From contig SVLF01000002.1 of the NCBI GenBank assembly GCA_015068085.1, positions 39,861 to 103,860 on the forward strand: 64,000 nucleotides of DNA, given 5' to 3'. Made by a program: the position numbers and the translations under genes. The notes below the pieces were generated by a model. The model ran no database searches. It had not been told where the DNA came from and saw only the letters and a program-made list of their open reading frames with translations. This DNA is from Oscillospiraceae bacterium (GTDB lineage Bacteria > Bacillota > Clostridia > Oscillospirales > JAAYXM01). Shown piece after piece: positions 40,665 through 59,203 of this stretch (position 1 is its first letter; every line of letters starts with the position of its first letter).

Positions 40665-40740
40665 GCTGTTATAGCTCAGTCGGTAGAGCGCATCCTTGGT
40701 AAGGATGAGGTCGGCGGTTCAAATCCGCCTAACAGCTCCA
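40665..40740 (+). tRNA. tRNA-Thr (anticodon GGT), CCA encoded; integration target
   Basis: GCTGTTATAGCTCAGTCGGTAGAGCGCATCCTTGGTAAGGATGAGGTCGGCGGTTCAAATCCGCCTAACAGCTCCA. The anticodon loop TTGGTAA gives GGT. Confidence 0.9.
40696..40740 (+). repeat. attL core (3' 45 nt of tRNA-Thr)
   Basis: Identical to 59159-59203. Confidence 0.9.
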
Positions 40741-40831
40741 ATCTCTAACGCCCTGAAAGTGTTGTATTTCAATGCTTTCGGGGTTTTCTCTTTTTATAAC
40801 ACACTCAGGCATTATAACAAACAGCATATAT

Positions 40832-40861
40832 TTCTAACGGAATTCTAACCAACCTTCTAAC
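40832..40861 (+). promoter_or_regulatory. Three direct TTCTAAC repeats: candidate integrase arm-type binding sites
   Basis: TTCTAAC at 40832-40838, 40843-40849 and 40855-40861 (11-12-bp phasing), between attL and the int stop. Another TTCTAAC at 58988-58994 lies near attR, and CTCTAAC at 40743-40749. Confidence 0.5.
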
Positions 40862-40865
40862 GTAG

Positions 40866-42044
40866 CTATATTAAAAATGTATTGTCAATACTCTTTGCCA
40901 TAGCAACTTTTTGGTCTTCTTTTATGTGTGCATAGATATTTAAGGTCGTTTTCACATCCGCATGCCGAAGCCATAATTGGATGCTTTTTATATCCCATCC
41001 CTTTTCAAGAAGAATGCTTGCCGTAGAATGTCTGAGCTTATGAAAAGTGATGCGTGGTAAATCACTTTTCTTTATTATTTTCTCAAACTTCTTACTGACA
41101 TAATCAGGCGAATATGGAGTTCCGTCTTCCCATACAAAGATGTAATCAGTATCTTTGTATCCTGTTCCAAAAATATCCTTATTTTCTTGCTTCTTATGTA
41201 TGAGTTCCAAGAACATCTCTTTTATTTTAGGAAGTAGTGGAAAAGTTGTGTTACTTGTGTCACTTTTGGTAGAATCTTTATATACAATGCTTTTGTTACA
41301 AACTACTGTATGATTTATTGTAAACTCATTTTTATCAAAGTCTATTGCGGACACTCGTAGCCCTAACACCTCAGATCTTCGCAAACCATAATACAGCACC
41401 ACCGAAATAAGGGTTTTATAGGTATAGTCAGTTATCAATCCCAAAAGTTTGTTCGCTTGAGTGTTGTTGTAAAACTGGATTGGTGCAGATTTCTGTGACT
41501 TTGGTAGTTTGGCAAATGTTACCGGGTTATAATCCGTTATACGATTAAATATTGCATCTTCAAATACCTGATTAAGCACAATACGATGTTTTCTCAACGA
41601 TGATACAGCAAGTCCTATCGGAGCATCGGTGTTCTTTGCTTTATCGTATCTTCGGATTTTACCGTTTAAGAACTTTTCGTTATAATATTCTTGTATGTGC
41701 TTAGCGGTAACATCTCTAATGTCAAGCTTCATATCCTTGAAGTATGGCAATATATGAGCATTACAAGTTGTTTCGTAGCCCTCGTATGTAACTATATCAA
41801 TTTGAGGCTTTTTTAGCTCAAGCCATTGATGGATATAATCAGTAAACATAATTTTTTGCAAACTCTCAGCACTCGTGTGTTCGTACTTAGCCAAAAGGTC
41901 TCGCAACATACTTTCCGCACGTTTTTTATTTCCTTTTGCTTCTAATCCAGTAGCAAACCATTTTGGCTTACGCCGTCCTTTGTTGTCTTTAAAATTAAGA
42001 ACACAGTATAATTTATTTCCTTTAACTTGAACGCTACCCGTCAT
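40866..42044 (-). CDS. int: Tyrosine recombinase (phage integrase family)
   Basis: 392 aa. N-terminal arm-binding-like domain (VQVKGNKLYCVLNFKDNKGRRKPKW). The C-terminal catalytic region has ..LRRSEVLGL.., HKLRHSTASILLEKG and ..LRHADVKTTLNIYAH (R-H-R-Y). Confidence 0.9.
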   Translation of the reverse strand: MTGSVQVKGNKLYCVLNFKDNKGRRKPKWFATGLEAKGNKKRAESMLRDLLAKYEHTSAESLQKIMFTDYIHQWLELKKPQIDIVTYEGYETTCNAHILPYFKDMKLDIRDVTAKHIQEYYNEKFLNGKIRRYDKAKNTDAPIGLAVSSLRKHRIVLNQVFEDAIFNRITDYNPVTFAKLPKSQKSAPIQFYNNTQANKLLGLITDYTYKTLISVVLYYGLRRSEVLGLRVSAIDFDKNEFTINHTVVCNKSIVYKDSTKSDTSNTTFPLLPKIKEMFLELIHKKQENKDIFGTGYKDTDYIFVWEDGTPYSPDYVSKKFEKIIKKSDLPRITFHKLRHSTASILLEKGWDIKSIQLWLRHADVKTTLNIYAHIKEDQKVAMAKSIDNTFLI

Positions 42045-42105
42045 TTTTAACTCCTTTCTCGTGAGTAGCCCACCACAAATATTATATACGATGGGCTGTA
42101 TAATT

Positions 42106-42294
42106 TCAAGCTGCGGTTTTGTTTATAAATTCAATTAAACAAGCTTTTGGAATACGATATTTTCCCGCTATCATAAACGACTTGATAACCCCGTCTTTCA
42201 GGAGTTTGTATGCTGTGTTTTTTCCTATATCTAAAGCTGTGCAAACATCCTGCACAGTCATAACATCACTATAATTTTTAAATATAATAATCAT
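42106..42294 (-). CDS. xis: Excisionase-family HTH DNA-binding protein
   Basis: 62 aa. MTVQDVCTALDIGKNTAYKLLKDGVIKSFMIAGKYRIPKACLIEF matches the excisionase/MerR-like HTH pattern. Located directly upstream of int. Confidence 0.75.
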   Translation of the reverse strand: MIIIFKNYSDVMTVQDVCTALDIGKNTAYKLLKDGVIKSFMIAGKYRIPKACLIEFINKTAA

Positions 42295-42355
42295 TTCTCC
42301 TTGTATATGTTTTTATAGGTGAGCGGACGGCACGATTAAACCGCCCGCTCGTGTT

Positions 42356-57340: not shown

Positions 57341-57363
57341 ACTTATGAAGAGAGGTCATTTTC

Positions 57364-57927
57364 GTGATATATGGGTATTGCAGAGTAAGCACCAAAGGAC
57401 AATTAGACGGCAACAGCATAGAAGAACAAACCCAAAGCATTAAAGGAAGATATTCAGAATCGGAAATTATCATAGAGAGCTATTCAGGAGCAAAGGAACG
57501 CCCTTTATTTAACGCGCTACTAGAAAAGATGTGTACCGGAGATATTCTTGTGGTAACAAAGCTTGACCGATTTTGCAGAACGACAAAAGAGGGATTGACC
57601 TATATAGACAACCTCATGAGTAAAGGTGTGCGGATTCATATCCTTAACATGGGGCTTATAGAAGACACCCCTATGGGAAGGCTGATAGTTACAAACCTGT
57701 TAGCGTTTGCAGAATTCGAAAGATCAATGATTATTGAGCGTACTCAGTCGGGCAAAGCAATAGCGAAGCAAAACCCCAACTTTAAAGAAGGTAGACCTAA
57801 AAAGTTTAATAGTGAACAAATTAGACTTGCTATGCAGTTATTAGAGAGTCATACCTATAAAGAAGTGGAAAATATGACCGGGATAAGCAAAAGTACATTG
57901 ATACGGGCAAAAAGATGCATGAAATAA
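57364..57927 (+). CDS. Serine recombinase (resolvase/invertase family)
   Basis: 187 aa, GTG start. The [12 protein letters not shown] catalytic-Ser motif, ..[12 protein letters not shown].., and C-terminal [18 protein letters not shown]...[14 protein letters not shown]. Confidence 0.9.
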
Positions 57928-57993
57928 TTGGCATAATTTGTATATTTTTTTAAAAAGTAGGACACAATAAATGTAAATATATAACCATCAGGA

Positions 57994-58668
57994 GTGTTCT
58001 ACTTGGAATTGACAATAGAGCAGTATCTTATTCCTAATTGTAGTCTTATCATTGACGAATTGAATATAGCTTATAAAAACTGTTCTGCAGATGAAATGAA
58101 AAAAGTTGCAGATAAAAGTTTCAGTGAAACTGATATGATGATGAGAGTTGGGTATCCGTTTAAAAACATGGCAAGGTATACAACTAAGACAGAAGATAGT
58201 GATGATTCGGGTAAAACTAATCATGATATTTTCATTGAGAATAAACGCTTTAAGATAGAACTAAAGTATTTGCGCAGCTGGAGAACCCAATCAGGAACGT
58301 ATTCGTGCAGCAAAGGGTGGAAGGAAATACAGTACGATTTTAATTGGTTGCTAAGTGAGATCAACAACGATAATAAAGGAAAGTCAGCGTTTATAATAGC
58401 GTGGTTTAATTGCGTTGACTCTTTTTCTAAGATAATTCAGTTAGGGGAAGGCAAGGGAGGTAAGCCACTTGTAAATGAAAGTAAGTTGTGCTTTTTCCCT
58501 TTTCTTATAAGACCACAGCTCCCTACAAGAACAGCAGACTTAGAGTACAACTATGAGATAGCTTATCAACGACTTCAAATTACTCCTATTGGATACAAAG
58601 GGAAAGAGTGTAACTGTACATTTGTTGGTAAGGAAAGTGATTGCTTCCACTTTGCAATTTACTATTAA
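57994..58668 (+). CDS. Hypothetical protein with PD-(D/E)xK-like nuclease motif
   Basis: 224 aa (the start may be TTG 58003, after AGGAG). ..NHDIFIENKRFKIELKYL.. fits a D...(E/I)-x-K restriction-endonuclease-fold core. No partner methyltransferase lies nearby. It is the last gene before attR. Confidence 0.45.
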   Translation: MFYLELTIEQYLIPNCSLIIDELNIAYKNCSADEMKKVADKSFSETDMMMRVGYPFKNMARYTTKTEDSDDSGKTNHDIFIENKRFKIELKYLRSWRTQSGTYSCSKGWKEIQYDFNWLLSEINNDNKGKSAFIIAWFNCVDSFSKIIQLGEGKGGKPLVNESKLCFFPFLIRPQLPTRTADLEYNYEIAYQRLQITPIGYKGKECNCTFVGKESDCFHFAIYY

Positions 58669-58697
58669 TTTCGACAAAATAGCATAAAATATAGAAA

Positions 58698-58734
58698 AAT
58701 TGCACTTTGAAGTTAAACAAGGTGCAATTCTTTT
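58698..58734 (+). terminator. Rho-independent terminator
   Basis: AATTGCAC ... GTGCAATT stem followed by CTTTT. Confidence 0.65.
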
Positions 58735-59158
58735 AATTTGAAAAAGTTATAAAATCGGCGATAAACCTTAGTTTTGTCGAACTCACCCGCGAATGGTTTT
58801 AGGCAAAATTGACTTTGAAAAACATAGTAATTAAGCCGTTTTTTGCTTGCTTAATAGTATGTGTTTTCTTGAAATCATTGTTCGTTTTAATATTAAAAAA
58901 TGCAGTATGATGATGTATAATCAATTCAATATTCAACATCGTTAAATACTCAATTAAAGATACATCAAATTTGGTGGACTACCCTTCTTCTAACACTTTT
59001 TCTATCCGATTTCCCGAAAAAGAAATGCTGTTCCGATGCGATTTTCAAGACTTACAACCTCTTTGAACCCGCTTAAATGCTAGGTTTCCCAACTCAACAT
59101 AATTCGATTTAAATTCAGTTAATCTAATGTAATAAATAGAATTTTCGATTGGTAAGGA

Positions 59159-59203
59159 TGAGGTCGGCGGTTCAAATCCGCCTAACAGCTCCAAAAGCCT
59201 TGA
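59159..59203 (+). repeat. attR core (orphan copy of the tRNA-Thr 3' 45 nt)
   Basis: Identical to 40696-40740, with no tRNA 5' half in front of it. Confidence 0.9.

Follow-up and report, generated by a model that had tools for sequence, protein, structure and literature searches.

The 64,000-nt window analysed here comes from a rumen or gut Clostridia genome and contains an element of about 18.5 kb integrated at a tRNA-Thr(GGT) gene (40665..40740, plus strand; ARAGORN, Rfam tRNA 74.8 bits). Direct repeats of 46 nt bracket it, attL (40696..40741), which contains the 3′ 45 nt of the tRNA, and attR (59149..59194), with a start-to-start distance of 18,453 nt (an 18.45-kb element). The repeats are exact, as an earlier note on this DNA had stated, at 46 nt rather than the 45 bp given there. 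Directly 3′ of the tRNA, the element supplies a terminator-like hairpin (40750..40784, plus strand), the stand-in for the original tRNA terminator, which has been displaced to just beyond attR on the host side. GC content is 0.30–0.43 within the element versus about 0.45 outside, where the host genes are nagB-like and glycerate kinase on the left and DUF4838 and SDF symporter on the right.

Next to attL, on the minus strand, are the genes for a 392-aa tyrosine integrase (40866..42044; PF00589 1e-27, PF14659 1e-12, phrog_1 3e-63) and a 62-aa excisionase-like (Xis) HTH_17 protein (42106..42294; PF12728 4e-13), the latter 62% identical to the protein at the same position in the related locus L024. 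An XRE/Cro-C1-type repressor of 77 aa (54215..54448, minus strand; PF13443 (HTH_26) 1e-11) adjoins a divergent switch region (54449..54658). Immediately 5′ of the XRE gene is a 12/12 TTGACA-17-TATAAT promoter (54489-54461, minus strand) whose -10 is of the extended type; the region also has palindromes of 18–19 nt (54508-54548 and 54442-54460/54578-54596) and rightward promoter-like sites, although such sites were overall not above chance (59 vs 57.5 ± 8.2). The Pfam and PHROGs matches, together with the promoter and palindromes, confirm the intact integrase, excisionase and XRE switch first described from the letters alone. The rightward “early” arm (54659..57207, plus strand) encodes o91 (RecE-C-terminal-like; phrog_6244), a DnaJ-domain protein (55065-55562), o90, small ORFs, o206 and o88; it is 87–98% conserved in the related loci L011 and L012, and no replication gene was recognised in it with Pfam or PHROGs. 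Beyond it, also on the plus strand, lie a 187-aa small serine recombinase of the resolvase/invertase type (57364..57927; PF00239 9e-33, phrog_125 3e-52), for which a search for an invertible segment found none, and o224 (57994..58668), which has no functional assignment and no match in Pfam, PHROGs or PADLOC.

The long leftward operon, all on the minus strand, opens with an RNA polymerase alpha C-terminal-domain-like protein, o247 (52172..52915; PF03118 8e-23, NF003515 2e-25), and has an 11/12 promoter at 52958-52930. Then come o268, with a C-terminal Stc1/endonuclease VII-like zinc finger (51164..51970; PF12898 6e-5, phrog_1035 5e-9), and o59, a small HTH-like protein with a weak phrog_2328 repressor match (50711..50890) that is kept in distant family members (63% identity in L024/L026). 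The next gene encodes a 397-aa YonV-family P-loop ATPase (SF2/ResIII-like; 49385..50578; phrog_2467 3e-73) with 42–44% identity to YonV of SPbeta/phi3T and a precomputed PF27199 YonV_C assignment, PF04851 ResIII being found on some homologues. Between this gene and o215 is a conserved non-coding gap of about 300 nt (49086..49384), with 91% mean column identity in four variants, in two of which the downstream o215 is only 47–54% identical; the gap shows weak covariation and no Rfam match. The HNH nuclease reported earlier is weak for o215 itself (48438..49085; phrog_59 6e-5, phrog_959 7e-4), but the L024 protein at the equivalent position is clearly HNH (phrog_953 1.5e-34). After o215 comes o79 (48196..48435), a small, fast-evolving ORF with no Pfam or PHROGs family match, 44–90% identity among relatives and a dN/dS of 0.45–0.70.

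The last gene before xis is the tape measure gene (42356..47284, minus strand). By its profile matches (PF10145 3e-20, phrog_4211 1e-68), the 1642-aa product is a genuine tape measure protein (TMP), in agreement with the first description; it has a hydrophobic segment at residues 573-605 and no enzymatic domain. Directly upstream, with its own RBS, lies the gene for o150, a 150-aa helical protein (47299..47751, minus strand) that we consider a putative tail-assembly chaperone (TAC) by position only. Its AF2 model (pLDDT 79) and sequence gave no PDB or PHROG match and no detectable similarity to solved TACs, including those of PLE1 (5IR0) and HK97 (2OB9), and no frameshift links it to o149. On a siphophage fragment from a virome (L001), a remote relative of o150 is encoded in the structural region. 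Comparative power is limited by the very small size of the family, as 1.84 billion proteins gave only 29 representative clusters for o150. The third protein, o149 (47768..48217, minus strand), is a weak member of the YomN family; Pfam YomN was graded “weak” for its orthologues, and hhalign aligned it with SPbeta YomN (E 4e-4) and with a YomN-like protein of L018 (E 8e-5), which itself matches a virion-structural and a Neck1 PHROG (phrog_7299 9e-13 and phrog_5 1e-4, respectively). Through this chain of weak matches, o149 is possibly a tail-completion/Neck1-like (HK97 gp10-like) protein; a Foldseek match to HK97-gp10 is a mere lead, because the model has a pLDDT of 55. The TMP gene had been called the only recognisable virion gene. 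The TMP assignment stands, but it may not be the sole virion-related gene, given the weak YomN/tail-completion likeness of o149.

None of the 20 ORFs matched a terminase, portal, capsid, tail tube, baseplate, holin or endolysin family (Pfam and PHROGs, E ≤ 0.01), so the absence of these genes reported earlier holds. NCBIfam and PADLOC were each run on 10 ORFs, and both were uninformative here.

Together with its relatives, the element forms a small conserved family of integrative elements of about 18–20 kb in Clostridia (Oscillospiraceae and “Eubacteriales” MAGs). We inspected about 12 loci from 4–5 lineages. The earlier note had left it between a gene content conserved at about 18 kb and an origin from a phage of about 40 kb; every context was compact, and the layout [o149]-[o150]-TMP-(small ORF)-xis/recombinase-host recurs across lineages. 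The window element and L012 have a tyrosine integrase at tRNA-Thr. L011 and L020, whose TMP is 73% identical to that of the window, combine the same core with a 549-aa serine recombinase at a site between feoB and smc. In L024-26 an integrase of 30% identity is found at tRNA-Gln, and L027-29 and L035 have yet another integrase and, in addition, a YonO-like RNAP. Distant relatives (o149 43–45%, o150 48% and TMP N-terminus 46–66% identical) sit at other sites with the same TMP-beside-xis/int arrangement. The occurrence of one truncated layout with at least four recombination modules/sites implies that the unit was mobile after becoming compact. Variants are also strongly mosaic, the window and L011 sharing 95% identity in YonV but 47% in o215, which indicates that the elements of this pool still recombine with one another.

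Purifying selection acts on TMP (dN/dS about 0.21 at dS about 1.0, with stops in none of the copies), o149 (0.11–0.24), o150 (0.19–0.27) and YonV (0.05–0.07), an overall range of 0.05–0.27. Conservation of the TMP is mosaic: the N-terminal 650 aa or so are conserved across the family, together with o149 and o150, and the middle, the C-terminus and the length vary (918, 1148, 1633–1642 and 1730 aa). This joint conservation and the variable remainder fit an assembly module whose parts are co-adapted and whose helper-facing portion is free to vary.

These comparisons bear on the parsimonious alternative of the earlier note, by which an ordinary siphophage prophage of about 40 kb recently lost a large part to deletion. 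Most gene-poor prophage-like regions are decay products, and this is the sole point in its favour. The layout persists where TMP dS has reached about 1 and between lineages whose proteins are only 43–66% identical, and at least two separate deletions flanking the TMP module would have had to recur identically in every lineage. A close full-length relative, the finding that would have spoken for deletion, is absent from every collection searched: megablast against 50,697 phage records gave no match, IMG/VR contained no complete relative and only partial TMP similarity, and the 185,579 species genomes (GTDB representatives) yielded only two compact relatives and no full-length one. A recent deletion is therefore highly improbable. 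Indeed, the element is not a one-off deletion, as its o149-o150-TMP-recombinase end is kept in diverged relatives, and the impression of a tidy, functional-looking unit free of recent decay is borne out by a relative with a swapped recombinase and site and by the purifying selection.

The TMP module looks phage-derived. The YonV-like protein, the TMP and, weakly, the YomN-like o149 belong to families of SPbeta phages, although the TMP has only about 21% similarity to SPbeta YomI, and a 109-kb viral contig has the order [phrog_11057 protein]-HNH-TMP-tail-protein; all genes found downstream of TMP on that contig are missing from the element. Such families, and the large phages that share the local order and then continue with tail genes, could be expected of an old, stably kept defective prophage remnant. 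Such a remnant would descend from the left end of a large siphophage and would not spread horizontally by itself, its surviving genes persisting through useful linked cargo or domestication. The same explanation accommodates the lack of recognised packaging and replication genes and of an empty site: of the 23 contigs read with the identical flanking gene, each either has the element or ends at the site, none shows an empty attB, and there is thus no sign of recent gain or loss in the strain. However, the exact att repeats, the intact int and xis genes, the mobility after compaction and the mosaicism all speak against a remnant, which we regard as quite unlikely.

Mobility could also be due to conjugation, with the element as an integrative mobilisable element (IME) that uses oriT mimicry or an unrecognised relaxase and has the TMP-like protein as incidental cargo. 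The compact size, tRNA site, tyrosine and serine recombinases and toxin–antitoxin (TA) cargo are also typical of IMEs, and PBECR4 and DnaJ-domain proteins are accessory genes of a kind associated with conjugative elements. Nevertheless, no ORF matched a relaxase, coupling protein or T4SS component in Pfam or PHROGs, and matches to the TMP in plasmid collections were limited to phage-plasmid-type records of 100–139 kb, all predicted to be non-mobilisable. Conjugation cannot explain why conservation within the family is most consistent in the TMP module, and we consider it very unlikely.

Between the operon start and the repressor gene lie, on the plus strand, a drum RNA (53199..53307; Rfam RF02958, 78.2 bits vs a gathering score of 43, E 1.6e-13) followed by a terminator (53309-53330), and the gene for a 202-aa PBECR4 nuclease-like protein (53351..53959; PF18813 1.6e-16). 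The PBECR4 position is a variable cargo slot, in which relatives hold RelE/MqsA-like or PHD/HicA-like pairs; its contents look TA- or defence-like, and such slots are common in satellites and prophages. This cargo neighbours a TMP module under purifying selection in an element that appears fixed in the strain and is absent from viral collections, all of which would suit a tail-assembly interference or defence island. TMP, o149 and o150 would then poison or out-compete siphophage tail assembly and protect the host population, with vertical inheritance or occasional spread by other means and no need for packaging. Tail-targeting defences on mobile elements have been published, namely, Rta of PLE11 (PMC12987554) and the Tai systems (PMC11364771). 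However, PADLOC gave no match among the 10 ORFs scanned (TMP, o149 and o79 lie outside that scan), a decoy in the form of a full-length 1642-aa TMP, its C-terminal region conserved, is an expensive one, and the recombinase swaps and new sites show that the unit moves whole. Interference as the sole role seems unlikely; it is compatible with a satellite, as a PLE does both.

Our preferred reading, held tentatively, is that the element is a phage satellite that contributes a TMP of its own, probably along with accessory proteins of tail assembly, so that chimeric tails form on a large helper siphophage. It draws on a precisely bounded and intact element, a layout that recurs with differing recombinases and sites, purifying selection on TMP, o149, o150 and YonV, the co-conserved, phage-derived module of o149, o150 and the TMP N-terminus, the absence of a complete relative from the phage, IMG/VR and species-genome sets, the variable TA/defence-like cargo slot and the precedent of PLEs (PMC12987554) and EPIPs (PMC12822802). 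The XRE repressor would hold the element silent in the chromosome until helper infection or induction, when Int and Xis would excise an 18,453-bp circle, as the intact att sites and genes suggest. The leftward operon would then be switched on (RNAP alpha-CTD-like protein, YonV ATPase, HNH-like protein, o79, o149, o150 and TMP). The TMP, o150 as putative chaperone and the weakly Neck1-like o149 might take the place of their helper counterparts, so that tube, baseplate and fibre proteins of the helper form tails around a satellite-specified core, by analogy with PLE; capsid and packaging would be wholly helper-derived, given their absence from the element. The helpers would most likely be large siphophages, SPbeta-like or related 70–130-kb phages and phage-plasmids.

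Several observations count against a satellite. No helper was found, and neither phage records nor IMG/VR contain a close match to the TMP C-terminus. The element, which the earlier note had proposed to look for in virome particles, was not found among 2.9 million IMG/VR viral contigs, nor was the o150 family. An attP junction or excised form did not turn up either, in two metagenome scans that are no valid test of it. The element also lacks any recognisable small terminase, pac/cos site, capsid-size determinant or replication initiator. The 23 flanking-gene contigs without an empty site, the dissimilarity of o150 to solved TACs, the weak chain behind o149 and the very small size of the family also weigh on this side.

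PLEs are about 18 kb and have a large serine recombinase, as does the L011 lineage here; they are not known to have a major capsid, portal or terminase. In Vibrio cholerae, PLEs bring a TMP, TAC and baseplate hub (BhuB) of their own and produce chimeric, shorter tails from helper parts, with the length set by the satellite TMP (PMC12987554). EPIPs (Extracellular Prophage-Inducing Particles) of Mycolicibacterium aichiense also carry a TMP, their tails being longer than those of the helper, along with a small terminase, head-tail adaptor and stopper, scaffold, “major capsid protein” and serine integrase (PMC12822802). The hybrid-tail strategy was first shown in cholera bacteria in 2025–26, and satellites with a TMP gene are by now published (PLEs in Nature 2026, EPIPs in bioRxiv, December 2025), so the statement that no described satellite supplies its own TMP is outdated and the element is not the first of its kind. 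Similar to PLEs, it is compact, integrated and encodes its own TMP with small proteins beside it, here known from genes alone. No homology to PLE was detected, the likeness being one of description and not of direct sequence comparison. In contrast to PLE, the host is a Gram-positive anaerobe, the presumed helper would be a siphophage and not a myophage, no baseplate hub, RepA-type initiator, capsid scaffold (TcaP-like) or nuclease effector was recognised, and o150 is unlike the solved PLE1 TAC by Foldseek. With EPIPs it shares the satellite-borne TMP, but it has no detectable packaging or head genes and its host phylum differs.

PICIs and cf-PICIs resemble the element in their integrase and XRE-type repressor, small size and need of a helper for most virion parts, and some cf-PICIs were reported with putative tmp genes (PMC12987554, Extended Data Fig. 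10). Unlike them, the element lacks primase/replication module, small terminase, capsid, portal and protease genes, and its int gene is not beside the repressor but at the far end, adjoining TMP. Finally, SPbeta-like phages (SPbeta/phi3T and Clostridioides pCD1602_4-type phage-plasmids) share with it the YonV family, a weak YomN relative upstream of TMP, a TP901/PhageMin_Tail-type TMP and, in sister elements, a YonO-like single-subunit RNAP; SPbeta is 134 kb with a full head, tail, lysis and replication set, whereas the element keeps only the TMP-proximal genes.

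The element is bounded by an exact 46-nt direct repeat at 40696-40741 and 59149-59194, spaced 18,453 nt start to start; the earlier note, which had reported perfect 45-bp att repeats, was right about their exactness and wrong about their length. The att core reads TTGGTAAGGATGAGGTCGGCGGTTCAAATCCGCCTAACAGCTCCAA, the predicted attP junction of the excised circle is ATAGAATTTTCGA-core-TCTCTAACGCCCTG, and the predicted attB junction of the empty site is GTAGAGCGCATCC-core-AAGCCTTGAAAACG. The left copy forms the 3′ part of a tRNA-Thr(GGT) gene (40665-40740), behind which the element supplies a new terminator hairpin (40750-40784), the original terminator lying just past attR. 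GC content is ~0.45 in the flanks versus 0.30-0.43 within the element, and the flanks hold ordinary host genes: nagB-like, glycerate kinase, and sigma factor genes on the left, DUF4838 and dicarboxylate symporter genes on the right. Together, the att repeats, the tRNA, the GC content, and the flanks bear out the element and its coordinates as first proposed. A degenerate att pattern matches the window and the JGI-derived loci L002, L004, and L005.

Two side observations concern the neighborhood. At positions 1-190 of a contig with an identical nagB-like gene (L034; ENA ERZ27256804 k141_148401), neither the element nor the host right flank follows the tRNA-Thr att core, which suggests that this site is an integration hotspot occupied by another element in that strain. 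Beside a tRNA-Val gene (38387-38463, minus strand), two tandem ~154-nt copies that are 91% identical (38088-38415) include the tRNA-Val 3′ end and terminator-like sequence. Copy number in this array is variable, because metagenome contigs place the glycerate-kinase and sigma-factor genes 360, 514, or 695 nt apart, and the copies could be scars of another integrative element.

A strong promoter (52958-52930, minus strand) heads a leftward operon. Its first gene encodes an RNA polymerase alpha-CTD-like protein (PF03118, 8e-23), and it includes o268 (ORFs are named by length in amino acids), which has an endonuclease VII/Stc1 zinc finger, a 59-aa HTH-like protein, and a 397-aa YonV-family P-loop protein (phrog_2467, 3e-73). 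After a conserved 300-nt gap come o215 (weakly HNH-like), o79, o149, o150, and the 1642-aa tape measure protein (TMP; 42356-47284, minus strand; PF10145 3e-20, phrog_4211 1e-68). The operon ends, directly after the TMP gene, with Xis (HTH_17) and a tyrosine integrase (PF00589, 1e-27), the latter ~12 kb from the XRE gene. The center of the element carries a PBECR4 nuclease gene and a divergent XRE switch with a 12/12 extended -10 promoter and palindromes, and the rightward arm encodes o91, a DnaJ-domain protein, several unknowns, a small serine recombinase, and o224.

Nothing resembling a terminase, portal, capsid, tail tube, baseplate, holin, or endolysin had been noticed by eye, and this holds in Pfam and PHROGs searches of 20 ORFs (E <= 0.01). 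An intact temperate siphophage would be expected to show a major capsid protein, a portal, and a large terminase, for which these searches gave no match; from a complete tail module (tube, Dit/Tal, terminator) and lysis cassette they yielded the TMP and a weak YomN/Neck1-like candidate only. NCBIfam and PADLOC, each run on a 10-ORF subset, added nothing. The element showed no recognizable replication initiator, small terminase, or pac/cos site, no iterons or tandem repeats that could form an origin, and no invertible segment for the small serine recombinase. The hallmarks of PICIs and cf-PICIs are thus absent: primase, replication, and TerS genes of a pri-rep and packaging type, like capsid-morphogenesis genes, had no Pfam/PHROG match, and int does not lie beside the repressor. 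The same searches found no relaxase, coupling protein, or T4SS, the hallmarks of ICEs and IMEs. A conjugatively mobilized IME, which would also leave the TMP module unexplained, is therefore very improbable.

Two non-coding features deserve mention in their own right. A full-length drum RNA (Rfam RF02958; 53199-53307, plus strand; 78 bits, gathering score 43), with a terminator of its own, lies 44 nt upstream of the PBECR4 nuclease-family gene (53351-53959, plus strand). Drum RNAs strongly associate with nearby protein genes, and their function is unknown (Weinberg et al. 2017, PMC5737381). In related elements, this slot is filled by RelE/MqsA-like and PHD/HicA-like pairs, which suggests that drum RNA and PBECR4 form an RNA-protein toxin-antitoxin or defense pair. 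The ~300-nt gap between the YonV-like gene and o215 (49086-49384, minus strand, in the window; 8805-9105 in L011, 8836-9132 in L012, and 1550-1839 in L013) is 91% conserved across variants, two of which are just 47-54% identical in the downstream gene. RNAalifold predicts several hairpins in it, with five covarying pairs in four sequences, and there is no Rfam match. In L024, L018, and L015-L017, short pieces of the gap are found again 3′ of the helicase or YonV gene (nhmmer E 3e-5 to 4e-3). Candidate roles for the gap are a late promoter or leader, an RNA, and a DNA site, for instance pac/cos or an origin.

The 1642-aa ORF is a TP901-type TMP, as judged from its PhageMin_Tail core (PF10145, 73 bits against a cutoff of 33, with nine TMP PHROGs matched), its coiled-coil-rich composition, as is usual for such proteins, and an internal hydrophobic segment at residues 573-605; a lytic domain is absent from the protein. 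At 0.15 nm per residue, the predicted tail length is ~246 nm. A helper, the phage presumed to supply the remaining virion parts, was sought with the C-terminal 275 aa, and the sole match was a 55-aa motif in MT835723.1. That record, the best match in the phage database, was rejected as a relative of the element and is an ordinary high-GC siphophage fragment. The plasmid collection held only distant TMPs, on 100-139-kb records of phage-plasmid type, and IMG/VR only partial TMP relatives, in 33-109-kb contigs, with ~48% identity over residues 550-900. In the 109-kb viral contig L009, the order is phrog_11057 protein, HNH, TMP, and tail proteins, and the element resembles this stretch with xis-int replacing everything downstream of the TMP. 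The L009 TMP itself (8945-17363 of IMG/VR UViG_3300032167_007466) is apparently encoded in two pieces, ORFs of 712 and 1365 aa with two opposite-strand ORFs (11972-13219) between them; this may reflect an intervening mobile insertion or an intron-like arrangement, reminiscent of the spliced ICP1 TMP.

Directly upstream of the TMP lie o149 and o150. Orthologs of o149 carry a precomputed Pfam YomN match marked weak, and o149 itself gave no match to YomN (PF27376) in the local Pfam copy. By hhalign, its profile matches SPbeta YomN (E 4e-4), the two sharing the motif D-x-Y-G-x-Y-x-P-x-x-Y-E-R-T, and also a YomN-like protein that adjoins a 2171-aa TMP in locus L018 (E 8e-5); the latter matches PHROGs for a virion structural protein (9e-13) and tail completion/Neck1 (1e-4). 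The o149 model is poor (pLDDT 55), and its Foldseek match to an HK97-gp10-like protein is a lead only. Through this chain of weak matches, o149 may be related to virion proteins. The model of o150 is confident (pLDDT 79) and mainly helical; against PDB, its best Foldseek E is 0.33, with no tail-assembly chaperone (TAC) among the top 50 matches listed. The HK97/PLE1 TAC fold (2OB9, 5IR0) was not found, and PDB-sequence profile searches likewise returned nothing. BFVD matches are all uncharacterized gut siphovirus proteins (E 0.005-0.02), and the family is tiny (29 representatives in 1.84 billion proteins) and without functional annotation. Since matches to a TAC fold or annotation are absent, the putative chaperone role of o150 rests on its position and its co-conservation with the TMP N-terminus. 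In a virome siphophage fragment, a remote relative is encoded in the structural region, flanked by the genes for an Ig-domain structural protein and the TMP. No G/GT-type frameshift joins o149 and o150, which are translated separately.

The YonV-family protein, the only P-loop protein of the element, is 42-44% identical to YonV of the Bacillus phages SPbeta and phi3T, with further homologs in phages of Clostridioides, Fusobacterium, and Acinetobacter. The family is large, numbering 3,032 clusters at E <= 1e-5, and the element protein has no PDB sequence match. A hidden terminase was considered and rejected, because in SPbeta yonV lies in the early region, outside the packaging module and far from the terminase gene yonF, and because some homologs carry a ResIII (SF2 helicase) domain.

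The identical TMP is present in 29 blocks of a public-assembly index; 23 contigs were read, and the chromosomal context was identical at all places shown. Samples containing the element include JGI 3300018878, 3300024303, and 3300024272 and ENA ERZ27248446, and complete MAGs with a member of the family include a Ruminococcaceae MAG (locus tags E7441_*), GCA_045539475.1, GCA_045537045.1, and GCA_017621495.1. Diverged relatives keep the layout. Loci L012/L019, from an 'Eubacteriales' MAG, share the tRNA-Thr site with the element and have an integrase 99.7% identical to its own; the TMP is just 84-87% identical to that of the window, and the cargo is different. Loci L011/L020, from another MAG, have the same core (YonV 95%, o150 92%, o149 81%, TMP 72-74%, o215 47%, and o79 44% identity) and lie between feoB and smc, with a large serine recombinase of 549 aa as the terminal gene, so the unit has switched both recombinase and site. 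Distant relatives found via o150 (L024-26; o149 45%, o150 48%, and TMP N-terminus 66% identity) are integrated at tRNA-Gln with an integrase that is 30% identical; their TMP is 1730 aa long, a clear HNH gene lies upstream, and a ResIII/DEAD helicase takes the place of YonV. In a further lineage (L027-29 and L035; o149 43%, o150 48%, and TMP N-terminus 46% identity), the TMP is 918 or 1148 aa long, and a YonO-like RNA polymerase and a Tn916-type Xis with integrase are present. In this lineage we also observed that the single-subunit polymerase (1084-1091 aa) is accompanied by a ResIII helicase and DUF5659, with a ParB-like protein in L035, and that several HNH-like genes and additional integrase-like ones interrupt the stretch between TMP and xis-int. 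In all relatives, the TMP is the last large gene ahead of the recombination module, with no further tail genes behind it.

Pairwise dN/dS (NG86) is 0.21 for the TMP at dS ~1.0, 0.11-0.27 for o149 and o150, and 0.05-0.07 for YonV, and no copy examined for dN/dS has an internal stop. With the same core joined to different recombinases and sites in four to five lineages, the element is, on sequence comparison, an independently mobile, conserved unit and not a decay product. A long-lived defective prophage remnant struggles with these repeated changes of recombinase and site and is quite improbable. The search of related genomes that the earlier note had proposed gave the same picture: the compact layout recurs, and no full-length relative was found by megablast against 50,697 phage records or in the GTDB species set, which held only the two compact relatives and three distant TMP fragments. 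The alternative first offered as the parsimonious one, a recent large deletion in a siphophage-type prophage, is scarcely credible, because diverged relatives share the layout, the genes are under selection, and no full-length relative turned up.

The best-supported reading is that the element would be a helper-dependent satellite bringing a tail-core kit: a conserved, mobile, selected unit without heads, packaging, or lysis genes has kept a TMP module. The mosaicism of the variants, which indicates a recombining pool, favors a satellite, as does the variation of the TMP C-terminal part and length against conservation of the N-terminal part and its two partners. Against it count the lack of a helper in the TMP C-terminus search, the absence of the family from IMG/VR, the fact that an excised form was not seen, and the fact that no presence/absence polymorphism was seen: all contigs with the identical nagB-like flanking gene carry the element. 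The 635-aa right-flank ORF, used in the search for an empty site, has no record as a translated protein. Of the functional satellite-like island first suggested, the functional, conserved, and mobile unit stands on dN/dS and on the recombinase and site swaps, and dependence on a helper is what we infer; the interpretation first offered is thus partly supported. In its fullest form, which we put forward tentatively and at well below even confidence, the proposal is an undescribed Clostridia satellite family whose only virion contribution is a tail-core kit (TMP, YomN/Neck1-like protein, and novel chaperone). This kit would re-core and re-dimension the tails of a helper, a large SPbeta-like siphophage or phage-plasmid; TMPs of 918-1730 aa would give tails of roughly 140-260 nm, and expression in some members would be driven by a YonO-type single-subunit RNA polymerase of their own. 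The TMP gene is intact and under selection, and its product would be built into chimeric tails. A tail-interference or defense island is compatible with much of this evidence and not exclusive of satellite biology, and we regard it as unlikely though worth serious thought; the remaining probability falls to something else.

A satellite with its own tape measure, of which the earlier note was unaware, now has precedents. The V. cholerae PLEs carry genes for a TMP, a TAC, and a baseplate hub, and form chimeric tails from ICP1 parts that are ~10 nm shorter than ICP1 tails; putative tmp genes also occur in PLE-like elements and cf-PICIs (Mathur, Boyd et al., Nature 2026, PMC12987554). Mycolicibacterium EPIPs carry a TMP, and their tails are longer than those of the helper (2025 preprint, PMC12822802). 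Manipulation of tails, as opposed to capsids, by a satellite was demonstrated only in 2025-26 in one Vibrio system, whose authors suggest possible generality (PMC12987554). The element is like PLEs in the concept of a satellite-encoded TMP; we do not claim PLE membership, because host phylum and gene content differ, and no PLE-type TAC fold was detected for o150. It differs from EPIPs and cf-PICIs in being without capsid or packaging genes, and its gene families are tied to SPbeta-like phages. The family is therefore not unprecedented, sharing a concept with published TMP-carrying satellites and not membership.

If the satellite reading is true, the range of tail-targeting satellites would widen to Gram-positive anaerobes of the gut and rumen and to helpers of the siphophage type, with a minimal kit of possibly TMP, tail-completion-like protein, and new chaperone, and with a link to SPbeta-type phage biology via the YonV, YomN, and YonO families. 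In this conserved Clostridial family, essentially no virion-related content lies outside the TMP module. The practical value is more modest. Immediate experiments are limited, because all members come from uncultured MAGs; current satellite and prophage finders do not see such elements, and for this reason, together with the absence of the family from IMG/VR, searches could be modeled on the o149-o150-TMP-recombinase signature.

Finally, two other kinds of loci came to light. The 500-kb scaffold L018 (ENA LUND18-1 scaffold_6) carries, in order, int, AbiU2, XRE, resolvase, YonV, an 894-aa phrog_8308 protein, the YomN-like protein, and the 2171-aa TMP, which has choline-binding repeats. Its resolvase and YonV are 49% and 63% identical to those of the window, and the locus, which runs off the fetched sequence, is collinear with the window element but larger, with a TMP that does not adjoin int. 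The closest abundant YonV homologs (67% identical) are in the ENA contigs L015-L017, in compact int/xis-flanked elements of another kind that encode a tubulin-family protein, a ~1060-1090-aa RdRP/YonO-like RNA polymerase, and a radical-SAM enzyme, and no TMP; this is another uncharacterized small element built from SPbeta-type genes.
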